The position numbers and the translations under genes were made by a program. Positions 1-8,709 of a stretch of 64,000 bases of DNA are shown one piece after another; positions within the stretch are counted from its first letter, which is position 1, and every line of letters begins with the position of its first letter. Origin of the DNA: an uncultured Thermoplasmata archaeon (GTDB lineage Archaea; Thermoplasmatota; Thermoplasmata; Lutacidiplasmatales; UBA184); contig CAWDQO010000006.1 of the NCBI GenBank assembly GCA_963804525.1, forward strand, positions 410,500 to 474,499, given 5' to 3'. Under the pieces are notes generated by a model, which saw only the letters and a list, made by a program, of their open reading frames with translations, ran no database searches and was not told where the DNA came from.

Positions 1-1104
1 TACTGCCCGAGCTGCGGGAACGTCAAGCAGGTCGTCCCAGGGATCGCGCCGGGGAGCGGCAACCCGTTCCGGGACCTCGTGGGGGGAATCCTCGAGCTCA
101 CCGTCAGCCCCGGCGGGAACCCGATGGAATCGGTCCGGACGACCCGGCTGCGGAACGGCGTGGAAGAGGTCGTCGCCTACGAGCGGGCCGGCGACAAGAT
201 CACGGTCCTCGACCAGCGGGCGCTCGAACGCCGGCGGACCCTCCAGAAGGAAAGCCCGCGGAAGGTCCTCGTCAAGCTCGACCGGAACCCGTTCGTGATG
301 GCGACCGGGGCGAGCGAGACCGAGCTCCTCGGCGACGTCCGGCACGACCCCTACGGCGGCCACCCCCAGCTCGGGACGCAGCCGTACGAGCGGACGGTCC
401 CGGGCGCGATCCACGAGGCGCACGAGGGGGTCCTGTTCATCGACGAGCTCCCGCACCTCGGCTCGATCCAGCGCCACATCCTGACCGCGATGCAGGAGAA
501 GCGGTTCCCGATCACCGGCCGCAACCCCCAGTCCGGCGGAGCCGCGGTCCGGGTCGACAACGTCCCGTGCGACTTCATCCTCGTCGCGGCGTCGAACATC
601 CAGGACATCCACGGGATCCTCTCCCCGCTCCGCTCCCGGATCGCGGGGGGCGGGTACGAGGTCCTCCTCGAGACGACGATGCCCGACACCGAGGCGAACC
701 GCCTGCGGCTCGCCCAATTCACCGCGCAGGAGATCGCCACCGACGGCCGGCTCCGACCGGCGACCCGGGACGCGATCGTCGAGCTGATCCGGGAGGCGCA
801 CCGGAGGGCCGAGGCGTTGGACGGGGTCCGGAACGCGCTCACGCTGCGCCTCCGCGAGCTCGGCGGACTCATCCGGACGGCGGGCGACCTCGCCACCGTG
901 GCGGGAAGCCAGTACCTCGAGGCGGCCCACGTTCGGGAGGCGCTCCAGCGGGCCCGCTCGATCGAGGAGCAGATCCGGTCCGCGTACGGCTCGCTCCAGG
1001 GCGGAATCCGCCAGGACGTGACCGAAGCCCAGCGGCAGAGCATGGGATACTACCACTGGAACGAGCACCCGGACCCCGGGGGATTCCCCGGCGGGTACGG
1101 CTGA
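1..1104 (+). CDS. LonB-type AAA+ ATPase, 5'-truncated by the window edge; ends without a Lon protease domain
   Basis: Frame 1 is open from nt 1 (YCPSCGNVKQ...) into ORF 79..1104. Motifs GVLFIDELPHL, VPCDFILVAASN and LRSRIAGGGYEV match the archaeal LonB/Mg-chelatase-like AAA+ core. The stop comes shortly after the lid helices. Confidence 0.6.
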   Translation, partial: YCPSCGNVKQVVPGIAPGSGNPFRDLVGGILELTVSPGGNPMESVRTTRLRNGVEEVVAYERAGDKITVLDQRALERRRTLQKESPRKVLVKLDRNPFVMATGASETELLGDVRHDPYGGHPQLGTQPYERTVPGAIHEAHEGVLFIDELPHLGSIQRHILTAMQEKRFPITGRNPQSGGAAVRVDNVPCDFILVAASNIQDIHGILSPLRSRIAGGGYEVLLETTMPDTEANRLRLAQFTAQEIATDGRLRPATRDAIVELIREAHRRAEALDGVRNALTLRLRELGGLIRTAGDLATVAGSQYLEAAHVREALQRARSIEEQIRSAYGSLQGGIRQDVTEAQRQSMGYYHWNEHPDPGGFPGGYG

Positions 1105-1183
1105 CCGGCCGCCGCCCGGGCAGGCCGGCGCTAGCGGCCGCGGTGGGAAGGGATAAGAACCGGACTCTGGTGGCCGCCCGAGC

Positions 1184-1256
1184 GGGCGCGTAGTCTAGTG
1201 GTTATGACGTCACCCTGACACGGTGAAGACCGCCAGTTCGAATCTGGCCGCGCCCA
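1184..1256 (+). tRNA. tRNA-Val(GAC): tRNA-Val (anticodon GAC), 73 nt, no encoded CCA
   Basis: Hand-folded cloverleaf. Acceptor GGGCGCG/CGCGCCC, anticodon arm TCACC-CTGACAC-GGTGA, T arm GCCAG-TTCGAAT-CTGGC, discriminator A. Confidence 0.9.
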
Positions 1257-1299
1257 CCTCACTTGCGGGGTAGTACCGTAGGCCCTCGAAATGACACCC
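1253..1299. repeat. Left end of the inserted element: 14-bp direct repeat (1253-1266, CCCACCTCACTTGC) followed by a 33-bp terminal inverted repeat (1267-1299)
   Basis: 1267-1299 GGGGTAGTACCGTAGGCCCTCGAAATGACACCC matches the reverse complement of 5832-5864 at 30/33 positions. The 14-mer recurs exactly at 5865-5878. Confidence 0.8.
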
Positions 1300-1353
1300 T
1301 CACCTGTCGGAATTCGGCCGACCCCACTGGGCGGGGGGGAGTGCCGATTCGCG

Positions 1354-1360
1354 TTTTTTT
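1354..1360 (+). terminator. Oligo-T tract (T7), a possible archaeal terminator downstream of tRNA-Val, lying inside the inserted element
   Basis: gcgTTTTTTTgc is the only long T run downstream of the tRNA. The assignment is inferential. Confidence 0.25.
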
Positions 1361-1595
1361 GCACCCCCCTATTTAAGGGGCCGCAACGAGGGGTCTGCTT
1401 CCACCCAGAGGAGCGTTCTCGAAGTCTAGGAATCCTTCGATTCGAGCACCAGACCGCCCGTTTCCTAGCCTTAGTAAATCCGATCGAGCTCCGCCTTCAT
1501 GAGAGTCTCTAGGTGAGATAGCGTCTCATCATCGGCAAGGGAGCTGGGCTGCGGCTCAAGCGGGAGGTGTATGGCACGGCTTCATGCGTTATCGC

Positions 1596-2935
1596 TTAAC
1601 CCCACCACTCTGCCCTGAATCTCTCTCGTCCGGCGTTCGGATCTAGCGCTCTTGCCATCAGCGTCCGTGCCAGCTCGAGCATGGGCTCGGGGTCGACGTG
1701 CTTTCGCTTCACCCGCTCCATCAGTAGTTCCAGGATCTTTCCCGACTGCTCTCGGAAGGCGATCCCCCACCGCATCGGCGGATACCGAACCCTCACCTCC
1801 TCGGGGAGCCGTGAGCGGATCTCGCTGTGCAGTCTCCGGCTGACCACCAACGTCAGTAGCGAGGCCCAGATCAGCGCTTCCGCCACCGAACGGTTGGTCG
1901 TGTTCACCCGGTCGAGCGCGTACTGGCTCTTCAACTCCTTGAACACCAGCTCGATCTCCCAGCGACACCCGTAGAGCTCCGCCACCTCCTCGGCGCTCAG
2001 TACCTCCGGGCCGAGGTTCGTGAGGTAGGTGTGGTACTTCCGGGTCTCCTCGTTCCACACCGCCACCAATCGGGCGGCGAGGGCGTCTCCTCGACGGTGG
2101 CCGCCGATACGCCCGCCGGGAGAAGGCGATCTCCACCTCGACATCCATCACCTCGCGATGCAACCGGGGTCGGACCTCCTTCCACGACTTCCCTCGAGAT
2201 CGATGGCTCTACCCCGGTGGACCCGAAGGGAGCGGACAATGATCGGGTCGACCGGGCTCTGCAGTCGGGTGAGGTAGAACCCTCCGTTCTCGGCGATGCG
2301 GGCGAAGGCTTGGTGCTTGTAGAAACCGAGGTCGAACAGGAGGATCGAACCCTTCACCCAAGGTCCGGGCTTCAGCGTGTCGCGCTCGCTGACGCTCTCC
2401 GGCATCAGCTCCACGCGCTTGGGTCCATTCGCCCGCACACTGACGAGGGTGGCGATCTTGGCGCCCGCCGTGGGCTGAGTCGACCTCGTGGCGGGGAAGT
2501 GGGTCATCAGCGAGGCGGAGAGCCGCACGATCGTGGAGTCCTGGATCAGCACATCCTCGAAGGCGGCGAGCTTCGGGCTGAGGCGGTTCCCGGGGGCGCT
2601 CTTCAGCTGAGAGAGGCCATGGGCCACACAGAGCTGGAGAACTCCACCAACTCCGGAGTGAATCGGTCGTAGAAGCTCGCGTAGCTGTGGATCGGCTTGG
2701 CGGCCCGCTGATTGTAGACATGGCGAAGCTGATCGAGGGAGCGCTGGAGGTAGACGCCGGCCTCAAGGGTGACGGCCCAGAAGAACGCTACCGGATCGAT
2801 CTTCCGATAGCGGCGAATGAACCCGCTCTCCTCAGCGAGGCGGGTGAGCACCTTGGAGGGGTAGAGCTCGAGGAGGGTGTCCTGGAGAAGGGTCGGCGGA
2901 AGGGCGCCTCGGCGGCCTCGAGCGATCGCGGGCAC
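1596..2935 (-). pseudogene. IS4-family DDE transposase, disrupted by at least 3 frame shifts
   Basis: ORFs 2603..2935, 2148..2627, part of 1582..2163 and 1596..2144 read as consecutive transposase pieces. They include IQDSTIV, LFDLGFY and the IS4 signature YGCRWEIELVFKELK (Y-2-R-3-E-6-K). Confidence 0.8.
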
Positions 2936-2990
2936 CCGGAGAGTTCAGGGCGCGAGGTATGAATCAACCGGCCTCTACCCGAAGGAGGCC

Positions 2991-3335
2991 ATGTCCCGGA
3001 AAGACCCCAGGCTCGAGCGGCTGATCGACTCCATCGCGGAGCAGGACTGTGACACCGAAGAGGATGTGGCCATGGGCCTCTGCTACGCCATCCAAGAGCA
3101 CGTTCGATTCCCCATCCCCGGAAGAGTGGTGGGGGAGGAGGTCTCGGTGCTAGATGTCGAAGAGAGCGATGGGCTCGAGGTCATGGCGATCTGCGAGAGG
3201 AACGGGCGCAAGTACCGAGTGACGGCTCCAGGACATCGTACTCAGCAAGAGGCCGGTCGGGGCGCAATGGATCGAGGCGTACCGTCAGTTCCGCGGGAGG
3301 GAAGGGAGCTCACCGACCGAGCTTATCCGATAACG
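2991..3335 (+). CDS. Small acidic conserved hypothetical protein with one frame shift near 3232
   Basis: ATG at 2991 follows GAAGGAGG. The sequence MSRKDPRLERLIDSIAEQDCDTEEDVAMGLCYAIQEHVRFPIPGRVVGEEV...RKYRV continues in the next frame as LQDIVLSKRPVGAQWIEAYRQFRGRE. It resembles a small protein family I recall from transposase or plasmid neighbourhoods; that is memory only, not verified. Confidence 0.45.
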
Positions 3336-3582
3336 CATGGAGGATTCTCGCACTGCCGCTATCGTGGGCGACTGAGCACGAGTTTGATAAGGGGAGTTTC
3401 GCGAGGTTGAAGAAGAGGCTGCGGAGCGGGGGTCCGACTCGAGGTTACTCCAAGGGGCTTCTGAAGAGAATCGAAGAGGCTCTCGACGACCTCTGACGAT
3501 TTCTTGAAATCGCCTCTTCGTAGGCACGTCCACCACTGAAAAGGGCCCTTTCTACCGCGCGGCATGCGGGCCACGACTCCAC

Positions 3583-4624
3583 TCAGACGGGATCTGGTCT
3601 CCGGTATAGACTTGCAAGAACCTGCTGTTTAGCTTCGAACCGCCGAATCAATTCGGCAGTTCCAAGACGGAGATAATGCGATCCGTCGGAGTCCTTGGAT
3701 GTCTCAAAGACCCCTACGTCAGTTGATGGTTCGTCGCGCACGGCTCTGACGAGCCTCGCCAGCAGATAGTCGGAATGCGAAGTGAACAAGATCTGATGGC
3801 CCCGTTCTCTCGCAACCTCGAGGAAGAAATCGAACGCGTCGGCCTGAGCGCCAGGATGGAGCGAAATCTCGGGCTCCTCAATGAGTAGGACGCCGTCCCG
3901 GAAGCTGTAGGCTTCGAGGACCAAGGGCGCAAAAGTTACGCCGCCAAATCCGCCATCAGCAAGCAGGGAGTCGTAGCCTGTAGTCTGGTCGATAAATGCG
4001 GCGGATACCTGTCCGTCCGCTCCCCCGACAAGTCGGTCGGAAAGCCTCCCAAGACCCACCTTCTGCATCCAGTAGTCCACACGGTCAACCTCGTTGGGGA
4101 CGCCCGTCAGCAAGCGCTCTCGATTCTTCTCGTGGTAGAACCAATGGATGAACGGGTGGATTGCTTCAGGGCTCACGGCAAGGTCGACGAAGGGATACTC
4201 CTTGACCGAAGACCAGCGTGCCATGGTTCGGCGCGCGGGCGGAAAGTACCCGTATCAGCTTGACATCGGCCGCTGGCTTCGTAGGTGTAGGGGCTCCGCC
4301 GACCTCATCGAGTCGGGGGAAATGCATCCCTCCGGCATCCCCAGCCTCAAACTCAAACCTGACATCGAGGGGTTGATCGGTCTGTCCCTTCCAAGCTATC
4401 TGTTGCCAACTGCCGAGAGAGAGTCCTCGCGAGTTAAATTCGGGCGGTGGGTCGATGCCTATCCTTGGGCTGAGGAGCCAGTTTCGAGTGGAAGCGACAG
4501 CTTGGAGCAATGCGGATTTCCCGCTCCCATTGGGTCCCCAGAAACCTGCGACCCTAGGCAGTGAGTCGATTGAAGCACTCTTGATCGACCGGAACCCGCT
4601 GACGGCAATCCGCGTTATTCTCAT
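3583..4624 (-). CDS. ABC/AAA_21-type ATPase (DUF3696-like) with one frame shift near 4200
   Basis: The N-terminal part (ORF 4166..4657, start MRITRIAVSGF at 4624) has Walker A GPNGSGKS. The C-terminal part (ORF 3583..4224) has LLIEEPEISLHPGAQ and FTSHSD. The ATG lies 4 nt after the DUF262 stop and is preceded by GGGTGA. Confidence 0.7.
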
Positions 4625-4628
4625 TGCT

Positions 4629-5840
4629 TCACCCTTGGAACAGCACTGACGAGGCAATCGACAATCGGGCCTTCACCACGTCTGCATTAGAAGTGCGTGC
4701 CCTGACGCTCCGAACATAATCCGGACTGAGGACCAAATCCGCAAACTTTTCCCGGGTGCGCTTGACCGAAGCGGTCGGGTTACGGGCAAAGGCGACCATG
4801 ACGGAGTCGCAGACCGCAGCGTTCAGCCCCGACCAGACATGGAATGGTCTCGGGCCTAATCCTTCGAGGATGCGTTGACAAGTCGTCGCAAAGAGTTCCG
4901 ATCTGACTTTCAGCTCCTTTCGATTCGCGAACCTGTTACGCTTCATGAAACGCGACATGAAATCCTTCATTGGCTGAGCATAGGTCTCGGCGCGTTCCAG
5001 CAAAGCCATGAATCGGAGGATGAGTTCGGCGTCACGGAGTCGCGAGTCTAGATGGGGTTTGCCGACGATAACGCGCCACTGGGGGAGGTTGTTCAAATCC
5101 ATCAACATATCGTTGAATGGACCCGAGTAAACGCAATTTCGCACCTCTTGATTCTTCAGCGACGTCCCCCCGGTGTTTAGTCTTTCGAAGATGTGGTAAA
5201 TGCTCGTGTCGTCATTTGGGTCCAGCTGGGCGATGAGTACAGAGTGGAGTGTCGAGTTTCGCAGTCGCCGTTGATCCTGTTCCGAAAGCTCGGTGAAAGA
5301 CTTCTCCGCCCAGCGGCTCTTGCTTCCCAGACCCTGGAGTTGGAAATTTCTTAGGTAGCCCGGCTCGCCTTCGGCCTTGAACGCCCCATCGAAGAAGTAC
5401 GAGATGCTTCGCAATCGCTGGTGCCCGTCGACAACCAGATGCTTCTGGGTGTCCTGCTCGGTGTAGAGGAACACCGGGGGGACCGGGAGCCCTGCTAGGA
5501 AGGACTCTATGAGTTTGCTTGCCTGCCCCGCGCTCCATACGTAGCCTCGCTGGAACTTGGGGATGAGAATCTCGCCTGATCGCCACTTGTCGTGCAGGAC
5601 CTGCAGAGAGAAGTCTACTCCTGATACTGCGATTTGATACTCGGGAGGGCTGCTGACGTAGTCTTCCTCCTCGCTCTCGATGGGCTCGACTTCGATGTCG
5701 ACCTCGGAGGCCGAAGTGCGAACGCCGTTAGGCTCAGCCACGTTCAGTCCCATCCCGTGGGCCGAATTAAGGCTCCCCGGGCCGAATCCTCCCCGGGAGG
5801 GTGCCGGATGGACGAGCTCGACCGAGCAAAGGGGTGTCAT
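4629..5840 (-). CDS. DUF262 (ParB/GmrSD-N-like) domain protein; start uncertain (5840 lies in the TIR, alternative ATG at 5753)
   Basis: IPKFQRGYVW and VVDGHQRL are the DUF262 signature motifs. The ORF is intact and forms an operon with the downstream ATPase. Confidence 0.75.
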   Translation of the reverse strand: MTPLCSVELVHPAPSRGGFGPGSLNSAHGMGLNVAEPNGVRTSASEVDIEVEPIESEEEDYVSSPPEYQIAVSGVDFSLQVLHDKWRSGEILIPKFQRGYVWSAGQASKLIESFLAGLPVPPVFLYTEQDTQKHLVVDGHQRLRSISYFFDGAFKAEGEPGYLRNFQLQGLGSKSRWAEKSFTELSEQDQRRLRNSTLHSVLIAQLDPNDDTSIYHIFERLNTGGTSLKNQEVRNCVYSGPFNDMLMDLNNLPQWRVIVGKPHLDSRLRDAELILRFMALLERAETYAQPMKDFMSRFMKRNRFANRKELKVRSELFATTCQRILEGLGPRPFHVWSGLNAAVCDSVMVAFARNPTASVKRTREKFADLVLSPDYVRSVRARTSNADVVKARLSIASSVLFQG

Positions 5841-5878
5841 TTCGCAGGCCTATGGTACTACCCCCCCACCTCACTTGC
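5832..5878. repeat. Right end of the element: 33-bp TIR (5832-5864) plus a 14-bp direct repeat (5865-5878)
   Basis: See the left-end feature. CCCACCTCACTTGC is identical to 1253-1266. Confidence 0.8.
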
Positions 5879-6079
5879 CGGGGAACCCCCGGGGCCTCGG
5901 CCCGATGCCAACCGCGATTCCGTTCCTGCGAGCGGACCCCCACGGTGAGACGCCGGTACTCCGTTGCCTCCCCGGTGAGCTCCGCTTGCCGCCGAGGTTT
6001 CGGGCATGCTGTCGCCGGGAACTCCGCAGGCCGTAGAAGGTGCTCCCGGTCCGGAACCGGGTCTCGCCCGCCACGACTC

Positions 6080-6540
6080 AGGGAGAGGGCCGCTGAGGGA
6101 ATCCCGTCGGTGGGGTTCTCCTCCCGCTTGGGAAAGGGTTGGCCGGGGCGGCCGTCCGATCCGCACGCGGAGTGGATGATCTCCGTCTGCCCCCCTCCGT
6201 CCGACCAGCTTGCGCCCACGACCCGGTCGTCGTACGTGCGAACGGTGGCTGGGGTCCCTGGCGGCGCAATCGCCAGGTACCCCCGGGTCGACGCGATCGT
6301 GACCACCACCGAGGAGGCCGTCGCGTGCGGCAAGGTGCCCGTGTACCCCCAGTCCGCGAAGGTCGTGGACGACTCGCCCGACACCGTTGACGCCCCTGTA
6401 CGGGTACTCGTGCCCCACGACCTGGGTCGTCGGAGACGATGCCGGGACGAGGGACGACCCCCCGGCGTGGGGGCCGGCTCGTCAGGCCACGGTCGGGCAG
6501 CGGCCGACCCGTCGGCGAGGGCTCGACCCGCCGCACGAGT
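6080..6540 (-). CDS. Hypothetical protein; frame and ends unresolved (probable frame shifts)
   Basis: The minus frame of ORF 5767..6384 (SGESSTTFADWGYTGTLPHATASSVVVTIASTRGYLAIAPPGTPATVRTYDDRVVGASWSDGGGQTEII) has strongly G/C-biased third codon positions. No family was recognised. Confidence 0.3.
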
Positions 6541-6550
6541 CCCCCGCGGC

Positions 6551-7624
6551 TCAGGTGAGGCGGCCCTCGAAGATTCGGTTGAAATGAGTCTCGGTCGCCC
6601 GCTCGAACCGGGCGAATCCCGCCTCGAGGGCGATCGTCCGAAGTACGGAATCGGGGGTCTGGGCGCCGAGCGACATGCCGCCCTCCTGGGCGACCGAGGC
6701 TGGGGTGCAGATTCCGACCGAGGCGCTGTAGAAGATCCGTCCGACGGGATTCAGGTTCTCCGCGAGGGTCTCGCGGGCCATCGGCTCGACGACCATCCAC
6801 GTCCCGTCGGGTTTGAGGGTCGAACGAACGTGGGCCGCCGCCCCCTTCGGGTCGCCCATGTCGTGCAGGCAATCGAAGAAGGCCACGAGGTCGTACCCGG
6901 TCCCCGGATACGATTGGGCCGCGGCGACCTCGAACTCGACGGAGCGGTCCACACCCGCTCGTTTCGCCTGGGCGCGGGCCTCTCGGACCGACGGCTCGTG
7001 GTAGTCGAACCCGACGAAATGGGAGTTGGGGAACGCCTTCGCCATCACGATCGTCGACGAACCGTGACCGCAGCCGACGTCCGCGACCTTCGCGCCCTTC
7101 TCGAGCTTGGCCACGACACCGCTCAGCTTGGGAAGCCAGTTCGAAACGAGGTTCGCGACGTACCCTGGCCGGAAGAACTTCTCGGTCCCGACGAACAGGT
7201 CCGGGCTGTGCTCGTGCCAGCCCACCCCCTTCCCCGTGCGGAACGCCTCGAGGATCCGGGGCTCGTCCTTGTACCCCGCGGCCGCGATGAAGAACGCGCC
7301 GGGAAGGTAGGCGGGGCTCGACTCGTCGGCGAGCGTGAACGCCTGTTCGGGGGTGAGGAAGAACGTCGACCCATCCGGCCGCAGGGACACGTACCCCGAC
7401 GCGGCCTGCGCCGCGAGCCATTCGCGAACGTACCGTTCGGACGTCCCGGTCGCTTTGGCCAGCTGCGCCGCCGTCATCCCGCCGGACTGGCCGAGGGCCC
7501 GGTACAGCCCCAGCTTCGCCCCGACGAGAATCGTCGGTCCGTGCAGGTTCGCCCCGAAGTCGTGCACGAACCGCATCAGGAATTCGTCGAGTTTTGCCGC
7601 ATCGACTGGAGCTTGTTCGACCAT
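6551..7624 (-). CDS. Class I SAM-dependent methyltransferase (small-molecule type, with an N-terminal winged-helix-like region)
   Basis: The internal start MVEQAPVDAAKL at 7624 follows GAGGAAAG. Motif I is VADVGCGHG, followed by DLVAFFDCLHDM. Confidence 0.75.
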   Translation of the reverse strand: MVEQAPVDAAKLDEFLMRFVHDFGANLHGPTILVGAKLGLYRALGQSGGMTAAQLAKATGTSERYVREWLAAQAASGYVSLRPDGSTFFLTPEQAFTLADESSPAYLPGAFFIAAAGYKDEPRILEAFRTGKGVGWHEHSPDLFVGTEKFFRPGYVANLVSNWLPKLSGVVAKLEKGAKVADVGCGHGSSTIVMAKAFPNSHFVGFDYHEPSVREARAQAKRAGVDRSVEFEVAAAQSYPGTGYDLVAFFDCLHDMGDPKGAAAHVRSTLKPDGTWMVVEPMARETLAENLNPVGRIFYSASVGICTPASVAQEGGMSLGAQTPDSVLRTIALEAGFARFERATETHFNRIFEGRLT

Positions 7625-7827
7625 CTTTCCTCGGGTCCGGGCCGGCGGACCGACGAGGAGGTCAGCGCCATCCGTGCTATGATGGTTCCTTTGGCCGGTC
7701 GCACGGAGGGGCCGCGAACTCTGCCGGGCCGACCCGTCGTCCGCCCGGTCGCCCGGAGGTGCCCCCGGGCCTCCGATGGGTTGACCTACCTCAACGGGTT
7801 GGCCGCGCCGCGAGCGCACCGAGGGGA

Positions 7828-8709
7828 ATGGGGGCAAAGCGGGCGGGACAGCGTGGGACGAGCCACCGGTCGGCTCCGTTCGAGATTCGCGAGCCGGACG
7901 TGGTCGTCCACGGCGACGCCCGGGCGGCCCTCCAGCGACTCGCTCCGGAGTCGGTCCAACTTGCGATCACCTCTCCCCCGTACAACGTCGGCATCGCGTA
8001 CGCGGGGTACACCGACGACCGGGTCCACCGGGACTACCTCGCGTGGCTCAAGTCCGTCTGGGCCGACCTCCTTCGGGTCCTGGTTCCGGGCGGCCGGTTC
8101 GCCCTCAACGTGGCCCCGACGTCGATCAAGGCGTTCCGTCCGATCCACCACGAGCTCACCGCCGACCTCCGCGACCTGGGCTACATCATGCGGACCGAGG
8201 TGATCTGGTACAAGCAGACGATGGGCCGCCGGACCGCCTGGGGGAGCTGGCGGAGCCCGTCGAACCCGCACATCATCCCGTCGTGGGAGTACGTTCTCGT
8301 GTTCTCGAAGGGACAGTGGAAGCTCCCGGGCCGACCGGAGGACGTCGACATCACCGGCCCCGAGTTCCAGGCGGCGTCCGACGGGTTCTGGGCGATCCCC
8401 CCGGAGCGGACGCGCCGGGGCCATCCGGCCCCGTTCCCCGAGCAGCTGATCGAGCGGCTGGTGAAGTTCTACAGCTTCCGGGGGAACACCGTCCTCGACA
8501 TGTTCGGGGGGACGGGGACGGTGGCGTCGGTCGCCCGGCGGAACGGGCGGCACTACATCTCCGTCGACGCCTCGTCCGAATACTGCCGCCTCGCGCGGGA
8601 GCGGATCGCGCTCGCGACCCCCGTGGCCGGGGCGCCGAGCATCCCGTCCCCGTCGGCGGTCGAGCTCGACTCCCCGGCCCCGTCTCGCACCGGGCCGGCG
8701 ACAGGGTGA
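7828..8709 (+). CDS. Beta-class N4-cytosine/N6-adenine DNA methyltransferase with no adjacent endonuclease
   Basis: Motif IV ITSPPYN precedes motif I VLDMFGGTGTV. HPAPFPEQL is present. ATG at 7828 follows GAGGGG. Confidence 0.8.
   Translation: MGAKRAGQRGTSHRSAPFEIREPDVVVHGDARAALQRLAPESVQLAITSPPYNVGIAYAGYTDDRVHRDYLAWLKSVWADLLRVLVPGGRFALNVAPTSIKAFRPIHHELTADLRDLGYIMRTEVIWYKQTMGRRTAWGSWRSPSNPHIIPSWEYVLVFSKGQWKLPGRPEDVDITGPEFQAASDGFWAIPPERTRRGHPAPFPEQLIERLVKFYSFRGNTVLDMFGGTGTVASVARRNGRHYISVDASSEYCRLARERIALATPVAGAPSIPSPSAVELDSPAPSRTGPATG

Follow-up and report, generated by a model that had tools for sequence, protein, structure and literature searches.

Immediately beside the tRNA-Val(GAC) gene of an uncultured soil Thermoplasmata archaeon lies a 4.6-kb unit (positions 1253-5878 of the 64,000-nucleotide stretch of contig CAWDQO010000006.1 analyzed here, which we call the window) that is very probably a casposon stripped of its own machinery, that is, a non-autonomous derivative, and not a transposon driven by an IS4-family transposase. 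Casposons are rare, have been studied chiefly because the CRISPR adaptation module is presumed to descend from them, and are defined by the combination of Cas1, a family-B DNA polymerase (PolB), and inverted ends at the 3' end of a tRNA gene. The unit in the window has inverted repeats homologous to those of Cas1-bearing elements, a target-site duplication matching at 14 of 14 positions together with an empty site, and the fixed geometry of these elements at tRNA 3' ends, and the 14-bp length of the duplication is itself a clue pointing to casposons. An inner Cas1 gene is found not in the window's element but in its same-end relatives in genomes G066 and G018, and of a family-B polymerase of its own, 886-1125 aa long in the relatives, just ~52 C-terminal codons are left (G and L numbers are our handles for genomes and loci, G000 being the window's own genome, and X numbers denote sequencing runs).

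The left arm of the outer repeat (1267-1299) reads GGGGTAGTACCGTAGGCCCTCGAAATGACACCC and the right arm (5832-5864), when reverse-complemented, reads GGGGTAGTACCATAGGCCTGCGAAATGACACCC, 30 of the 33 positions being identical, and the two form the longest inverted pair that the repeat search found within 1000-6200. Both arms are touched by the same 14-mer, CCCACCTCACTTGC (1253-1266 and 5865-5878), which cannot be extended either way, and whose first four letters, CCCA (1253-1256), are the final acceptor-stem bases plus the discriminator of tRNA-Val(GAC); the left arm thus begins 10 nt beyond the last base of the tRNA. A preliminary description of this DNA had claimed the 33-bp terminal inverted repeats at 30/33, the identical 14-mers bracketing them, and the overlap of the first 4 nt with the tRNA 3' end, and all three hold, with Rfam placing the tRNA end at 1256. 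Given an expected count of 1.2e-7 for 30/33 inverted pairs in a 5.2-kb stretch, a best value of 25/33 among 100 shuffles, and a chance probability of P = 7.6e-9 for a 14/14 direct flank, the outer repeats and the duplication are real and far above chance. The G+C content is 0.53-0.65 within the element vs. 0.69-0.74 outside, and in the window's own 2.19-Mb, 6-contig genome the 33-mer occurs at two places only, both of them ends of this element. The features are collected in Table 1.

Table 1. Features of the tRNA-Val(GAC) locus and of the element next to it (window coordinates).
Feature	Position	Strand	Evidence
tRNA-Val(GAC), integration target	1184..1256	+	Rfam RF00005, 71.7 bits, 1184-1256; ARAGORN 1184-1258
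Target-site duplication, left 14-bp copy, CCCACCTCACTTGC	1253..1266	+	Direct reading, repeat search; sole copy in the X2 empty-site contig
Left casposon-type terminal inverted repeat, type A motif GGGGTAGTACCnTAGGnnnnCGAAATGACACCC	1267..1299	+	Direct reading, repeat search; motif at ends of the G066 and G018 Cas1 elements
Left subterminal segment, no gene	1300..1582	.	Open reading frame 1291-1512 without Pfam match; blastn against 18 related loci gave nothing
IS4-family insertion sequence, own inverted ends 1583-1599/3323-3339, broken transposase	1583..3339	-	Repeat search; 3 G013 copies
Remnant, last ~52 codons and stop of a putative family-B DNA polymerase gene	3340..3496	+	blastn with L037/L039; tblastn
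NsnB-like ABC/AAA ATPase, two frames in the window (4166-4657, 3583-4224)	3583..4657	-	Pfam AAA_15/AAA_21; PADLOC
NsnA-like ParB/DUF262 protein (Menshen sensor type), 403-aa open frame	4629..5840	-	Pfam GmrSD_N 2.9e-27; PADLOC
Right casposon-type terminal inverted repeat	5832..5864	-	Direct reading, repeat search
Target-site duplication, right 14-bp copy, CCCACCTCACTTGC	5865..5878	+	Direct reading, repeat search, X2 contig

The same ends recur elsewhere in the genus, nearly always in the same relation to a tRNA end. With GGGGTAGTACCnTAGGnnnnCGAAATGACACCC as a pattern for ends of this type A (the 33-mer with five positions free and <=2 mismatches), one copy each was found in 7 of the 149 other genomes of the genus, and none with the reversed control; these genus-wide tallies, like those over relatives, take in the unpublished genomes G019, G148, and G149, none of which contributes a specific element described here. 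The motif stands exactly 10 nt after a tRNA-Val(CAC) sequence in G066 and G147, it follows a fragment resembling a tRNA 3' end and ending in CCCA in G007, G055, and G150, and in G018 and G115 the flank outside it ends ...TGGG, which is the same arrangement seen from the far side. With the window's two ends included, CCCA, which appears as TGGG at a far-side end, lies exactly 14 nt outside the repeat in 8/9 type-A ends, with G150 off by one, and a metagenome scan added four more ends that all have this geometry (one after tRNA-Val(CAC), one after tRNA-Val(TAC), and two at a sequence identical to that of G007). The 10 nt between CCCA and the repeat vary by site at a fixed spacing, as expected of a duplication that arises with each insertion and not of an attachment site that is carried along. 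The targets of the lineage comprise all three tRNA-Val isoacceptors. The shorter 11-mer GGGGTAGTACC was rejected as a diagnostic, given that it matches 72/150 genomes and that its reversed control also matches many, and an orthologous location for the G018 casposon was discarded, the tRNA-Val(GAC) of G018 being unoccupied.

The window's ends are 88-94% identical to those of L021/L037 and L016/L039, where the end and the Cas1 gene are 5-9 kb apart. Going inward from the motif, G066 carries a type III restriction-modification pair followed by a 398-aa Cas1, and G018 carries a SIR2_2 protein, a 1125-aa protein, and then likewise a 398-aa Cas1 (Pfam Cas1, 1.6e-44 and 5.2e-48, respectively). The best solved relative of the G066 Cas1 in the PDB is 6OPM, matched over the full length with E 6.2e-67, the next best Cas1 chain, from CRISPR, being at 5.9e-22; we take 6OPM to be the casposase of Methanosarcina mazei, its table name being only "CRISPR-associated endonuclease Cas1". 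Full-length homologues of this type of Cas1 (53-75%) occur in G018, G060, G163, and G164, and a Cas1 match at E <=1e-10 occurs in 24/150 genomes, many of these being CRISPR-type Cas1 at 28-35%. Beside Cas1, in four loci, are proteins of 757-1125 aa that align mutually with the consensus DTETT, NLPFD, YxLND, DFTSQxPS, KIxxNxLxYG, and YCDTDS, which we take to be the Exo I-III and A, B, and C motifs of family-B polymerases. Their nearest Atlas clusters (score 0.99) have DNA_pol_B or DNA_pol_B_2 on 14-41% of members, and NCBIfam gives a faint match to DNA polymerase II; no PolB match was obtained from Pfam at E 1e-3, from phmmer against the PDB, or from a profile of 5 homologues against the PDB. 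The gene content of the intact lineage is Cas1, a putative family-B polymerase, small accessory genes, and a variable defense cargo next to an end. The defense genes differ by element among the Cas1/PolB loci L021/L037, L016/L039, L038, L040, and L041, where we found a type III Res protein that has an endonuclease domain and is accompanied by an N6_N4 methylase, a 1028-aa SIR2_2 protein, a type I R subunit together with HEPN_AbiV, an enzyme similar to Eco57I/MmeI, PD-(D/E)XK/Cas4-like and NYN proteins, and a weak PARP-like match.

The window's element is tied to these genes by a polymerase remnant. Positions 3340-3425/3431 are 78-81% identical (blastn) to the 3' end of the polymerase genes in L037 and L039, and 3340-3496 aligns in translation with the last ~52-68 residues of the 894-aa and 1125-aa proteins, down to the stop (tblastn, E 2e-14 and 4e-14). 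This similarity starts at 3340, the very first base past a nested insertion sequence (IS), and the order of polymerase tail, cargo, and right end in the window matches that of G018, where polymerase, SIR2 protein, and end follow one another. Cas1 is absent from 1253-5878 by Pfam.

The nested IS is marked by a second inverted pair (1580-1599/3323-3342 in the repeat search) and measures 1757 bp (1583-3339), with ends CATGCG...CGCATG. Window positions 1579/1582 to 3339/3341 match three separate places in G013 at 77% over the full ~1.76 kb, and the one copy that was aligned (L004) has the same CATGCG...CGCATG ends, a 10-bp duplication, GAACGAGCTT, and an intact 449-aa transposase (NCBIfam IS4 model NF033592, E 3.1e-68, 230 bits vs. 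a cut-off of 115). The window's copy has its DDE_Tnp_1 transposase in pieces, all on the minus strand (2603-2935, 2148-2627, and 1596-2144 by Pfam), with a frameshift at about codon 100 and a stretch, locally out of frame, that contains a stop, and its flanks, GGCACGGCTT and GAGGATTCTC, show no 10-bp duplication. The lesion at 2190 is real, since a contig of the soil run X1 over 2125-2409 agrees with the window where the other IS copies have an extra base. It had been claimed that the only transposase inside the unit is of IS4 type and decayed; type and decay stand, but the gene sits in a separate IS, and this transposase is not the 4.6-kb unit's own enzyme but a passenger that has other ends. 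The IS shares its NF033592 transposase (in the intact G013 copy), CATGCG ends, and 10-bp duplication with IS4-family elements of what is presumably the ISH8-like group of ISfinder, characterized by CAT ends and a 10-bp duplication; here the IS is carried along and is not the mover of the larger unit. A small plus-strand open reading frame inside the IS, upstream of the transposase (2989-3339, within the frame 2877-3410), has no family match, and its frame is probably misread in the window, because the contigs of all four runs show one base fewer at 3221. The window's genome also contains three remoter relatives of the transposase region (67% over ~1 kb, at C2:253088-254122, C6:682231-683233, and C1:2498-3532).

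Public sequencing runs that hold the window's stretch, all labeled soil metagenomes, provide the empty site that had been predicted, tRNA-Val followed by one 14-mer. In run X2, which belongs with X1 to one study and comes from a different sample, a 690-nt contig joins 1252 to 5865 and skips 4612 nt, with 14 letters that fit both sides; it has 71 letters on the left side and 0 differences over 5865-6300. X2 also has contigs from the element interior (4250-4680, 5066-5445, and 5460-5755), and with both the empty-site and the cargo-region contigs at hand, filled and empty alleles coexist. In X1, contigs with 0-1 differing letters cover 1237-1703 (left duplication, repeat, and IS end), 3179-3615 (IS end and polymerase tail), and 3596-5894 and 5865-6300 (cargo, right repeat, duplication, and flank), and because they bridge every junction, the structure is no artifact of the window's assembly. 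The empty allele may be ancestral or it may be an excision product, the latter because, according to PMC10359463, a casposon that excises in M. mazei leaves behind one clean copy of its target. Among the 149 other genomes of the genus no empty site was found: the 836 nt that follow the element on its right have no syntenic counterpart there, and the left and right flanks lie apart in 40 relatives. Two further runs, X5 and X6, have no contig over most of 3434-5786, which is no evidence of absence. Single short contigs of X5, over 1199-1256 and 5831-5890, show the right repeat and flank with different letters before 5831, and the tRNA end joined to the repeat in opposite orientation (1256 to 5865); these might represent another variant at the same site.

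In the history that we propose, a Cas1-type casposase of a soil-Thermoplasmata casposon lineage would have integrated a full casposon next to tRNA-Val(GAC). By analogy with M. mazei, the enzyme would read the tRNA 3' end and attack the two strands 14 bp apart, after which gap repair would copy CCCA and the next 10 nt. The IS4-family IS would later have entered the element, and a deletion or recombination at this IS would have taken the left cargo, Cas1, the small genes, and all of the polymerase except its last ~52 codons, leaving the two 33-nt ends with a perfect duplication outside them, the tail of the polymerase gene, an IS in decay, and, on the right, a cargo of NsnA- and NsnB-like genes. 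An IS-linked deletion is probable because this IS copy is without its 10-bp duplication, and the nested IS was probably the agent of the deletion inside the casposon. The element would now be immobile alone and could be moved only with a casposase, supplied in trans, that recognizes this type of end.

Several points weigh against this interpretation. None of the Cas1-bearing members could be shown to be complete, with a type-A end on either side and a duplication: no second end was found in G066, G018, G007, G150, or G115, by a relaxed pattern or by a second copy of the 14-nt flank, and the contigs of the Cas1-bearing elements in G066 and G018 stop 12.9 and 13.7 kb inside them. The window's whole genome has no Cas1 match, at 80.8% completeness. 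The putative polymerases owe their assignment to motifs that we recognize, a language-model neighbor search, and a faint NCBIfam match. X1 and X2 share one study, and X1 may be the window's own source sample. The order of insertion, IS entry, and deletion in place is one that we infer. Empty and filled alleles have identical flanks over the ~500 nt seen, which leaves little time for decay in place and fits equally a move of an already reduced element or an exchange of alleles between strains.

Other casposons of this genus are reduced as well. A second, related type of end, type B (GGGGTAGTACCAATTcGCCgAAAnTTGCACTAcCCC), also lies 10 nt past tRNA-Val genes, namely after tRNA-Val(CAC) in G000 (C5:192895), G007, and G002, after tRNA-Val(TAC) in G060, and, by eye, after a 3' end of the tRNA-Val(TAC) type in L040, with a casposase-type Cas1 4-9 kb inward in the last two. 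CCCA is found at -14 in 8/10 type-B ends, the remaining two being one with CCCT (G000:C5:701248) and one decayed far end. In G123, a 761-bp Cas1-less element with type-B ends and a perfect 14-bp duplication, CCCATCTCCGGGGC, sits at tRNA-Val(CAC), and in G065 a 7.5-kb Cas1-less element at tRNA-Val(TAC) contains two polymerase remnants, an AAA+TPR protein, and helix-turn-helix proteins, its far duplication matching at 9/14 when the flanks are aligned by hand. The element of the window is, therefore, one of several reduced casposons in the genus. The window's genome itself has solo type-B ends at C5:192895 (L017) and C5:701248, both at a distance of 10 nt from a preceding tRNA or tRNA-like 3' end, which in the second case has discriminator T and is not called by ARAGORN; no partner end for either was found within 60 kb. 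After tRNA-Val in the metagenome contig L102 and in G007 (L015, 9958-10071) there are units made of a partial tRNA 3' end, 10 nt, and a casposon end, and in L102, within 7 nt of a solo type-A end, there comes a 22-nt copy of a tRNA end, succeeded by 10 nt and one more end; these units are tandem, array-like scars at the target.

The alternative that survives best is that the reduced unit itself, with its ends, IS, polymerase tail, and NsnAB-like pair but no Cas1, was integrated at tRNA-Val(GAC) by a casposase acting in trans, as a natural counterpart of the mini-casposons built in the laboratory. The perfect 14/14 duplication and the identical flanks of the filled and empty alleles would suit such an event, and so would the existence of other small repeat-bounded derivatives, one of 761 bp with a perfect duplication; moreover, artificial mini-casposons, in which a cargo stands between terminal inverted repeats and target-site duplications, were moved in trans in M. 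mazei, as PMC10359463 describes. Nevertheless, we consider this improbable. The unit is present in a single copy in the window's genome and at no other site in the 149 other genomes of the genus, and the window's genome, 80.8% complete, gives no Cas1. The interior of the 761-bp element was not amplified along with its ends, its two 83% matches (in G123 and G124) both being without ends. As for the missing duplication of the IS, it shows that a rearrangement happened, not where.

The model of an IS4/ISH8-type non-composite cargo transposon proposed in the preliminary description, in which the outer 33-bp repeats would once have been substrates of the now decayed transposase, is most unlikely and already contradicted. 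IS4-family elements do make fairly long duplications, and this is the sole transposase inside the unit; however, it belongs to its own 1757-bp IS, whose ends, CATGCGTTATCG... (1583, 3339), are unrelated to the outer GGGGTAGTACC..., the IS stands alone at three places in G013 with a duplication of 10 bp in the copy examined against 14 bp outside, and the outer repeat is found at Cas1/PolB elements that are without the IS. Of that proposal, the real insertion, the true duplication, and the defense-like cargo remain, and the mover does not, the ends being those of a casposon. A tRNA-linked island brought by a since-lost tyrosine or serine recombinase, with the 14-mer as attachment core and incidental inverted repeats, had already been thought a poorer fit and is scarcely credible: a unit of lower G+C adjoining a tRNA gene, with a direct repeat touching the tRNA end, would suit it, but Pfam finds no integrase or integrase fragment in the element, the repeat overlaps the tRNA by just 4 nt and abuts 33-nt inverted repeats common to Cas1 elements, and 10 nt that vary by site at a fixed spacing are the signature of a duplication made per insertion.

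A stripped casposon finds its closest known parallel in family 2 of the M. mazei casposons (MetMaz-C1, the tRNA-Leu elements, and the structure 6OPM), with which the intact relatives of the window's element share a Cas1-type integrase, a putative PolB, and terminal inverted repeats. According to PMC4779613, those casposons insert in the 3'-distal part of tRNA-Leu and make 14-bp duplications with four invariant first positions, CGCA there and CCCA here, and they leave solo repeats as remnants, insert in tandem, and coincide with contig breaks; these features are all paralleled in the present lineage, including the insertion at a tRNA 3' end and the contigs that break at elements. The differences lie in the host, a soil Thermoplasmata, in the target, tRNA-Val, in the sequences of the ends, in a polymerase too divergent for Pfam, and in a window copy that has neither Cas1 nor polymerase. 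The solo repeats of M. mazei are likewise products of casposon decay at a target site, and solo ends of both types occur in this genus (e.g., in G007); in contrast, the window's element has both ends, an intact duplication, and 4.5 kb between them, which makes it formally transposable and no single scar. Laboratory mini-casposons, as presented in PMC10359463, have the same layout with a foreign cargo and no casposase inside, and their excision leaves one clean target copy like the X2 empty-site contig; those were engineered, whereas the layout in the window is natural and is a candidate for mobilization in trans.

The cargo claimed for the unit, a DUF262 protein with an ATPase, proved to be there, as a GmrSD_N/DUF262 frame and an AAA_15/AAA_21 ATPase, and it is defense-like by PADLOC. 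For the DUF262 protein, PADLOC gives NsnA (1.3e-61, profile 23-378/385) followed by PD-T4-2_A (2.6e-50), and for the pieces of the ATPase it gives NsnB (3.3e-15 and 9.5e-6) and HEC-03B (1.4e-16). The true start of the NsnA-like protein is probably further in, because the first ATG of its frame falls within the right repeat, and the split of the ATPase is probably an assembly error of the window, because an X1 contig with one C fewer at 4249-4251 (CCC to CC) gives a single 357-aa frame. According to PMC12065111, NsnABC constitutes the Menshen system, in which a ParB/DUF262 protein is the sensor, an ABC ATPase the transducer, and a nuclease the effector, the third gene after NsnB being almost always present. 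The window's pair shares with it the NsnA-type ParB/DUF262 protein and, directly downstream, the NsnB-type ABC ATPase, but one defining feature fails, since there is no third gene: past the NsnB stop (3583) only 86 nt follow before the convergent stop of the polymerase remnant, and the small open reading frames there have no family match. With the usual NsnC absent the module may be incomplete, and judging from the PD-T4-2 A-subunit score the pair may be closer to PD-T4-2 than to Menshen; its genes are probably still expressed as a defense module. NsnA relatives occur in 5 of the 149 other genomes of the genus, with 53% identity at best, a rarity that fits an imported cargo.

As for the surroundings, the two arms of an 18-nt inverted repeat, CCCGGGGGATTCCCCGGC/GCCGGGGAACCCCCGGGG (89%), are found at 1075-1092, upstream of the tRNA, and at 5877-5894, right after the second duplication copy. 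In the empty site they would flank the tRNA-Val gene and might form a stem for processing or termination. The right flank, 5879-7400 and beyond, has no syntenic counterpart in the genus, and to the right of the element a plus-strand frame (7594-8709) resembles an adenine-specific DNA methyltransferase (NF008572, 1.7e-23); the flank of tRNA-Val may be part of a wider variable region.

In summary, the soil-Thermoplasmata casposons aimed at tRNA-Val, with their fixed geometry of CCCA plus 10 nt, apparently form an undescribed lineage, and a literature search covering abstracts and selected passages yielded no paper describing either this lineage or natural Cas1-less casposon derivatives with both ends. 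Its members behave as small defense islands, the cargo next to an end being type III restriction-modification, a protein with a SIR2 domain, a type I R subunit accompanied by AbiV, an Eco57I-like enzyme, or NsnAB. This locus also shows that a transposase within a repeat-bounded unit need not be its mover. Given that Cas1-less derivatives with both ends and a duplication are polymorphic in nature, the natural use of casposon ends in trans becomes directly testable. It is conceivable, although rather unlikely, that soil Thermoplasmata harbor natural non-autonomous casposons of 0.76-7.5 kb, with 14-bp duplications at tRNA-Val, which resident casposases move in trans and which shuttle defense modules between strains. 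If so, recent movement of a reduced element would account for the coexistence of filled and empty alleles within one soil sample, and such units would be the casposon counterpart of miniature inverted-repeat transposable elements and of cargo-carrying non-autonomous transposons, as well as a natural analogue of the step of casposon ends without casposase that has been invoked for the origin of CRISPR repeats.

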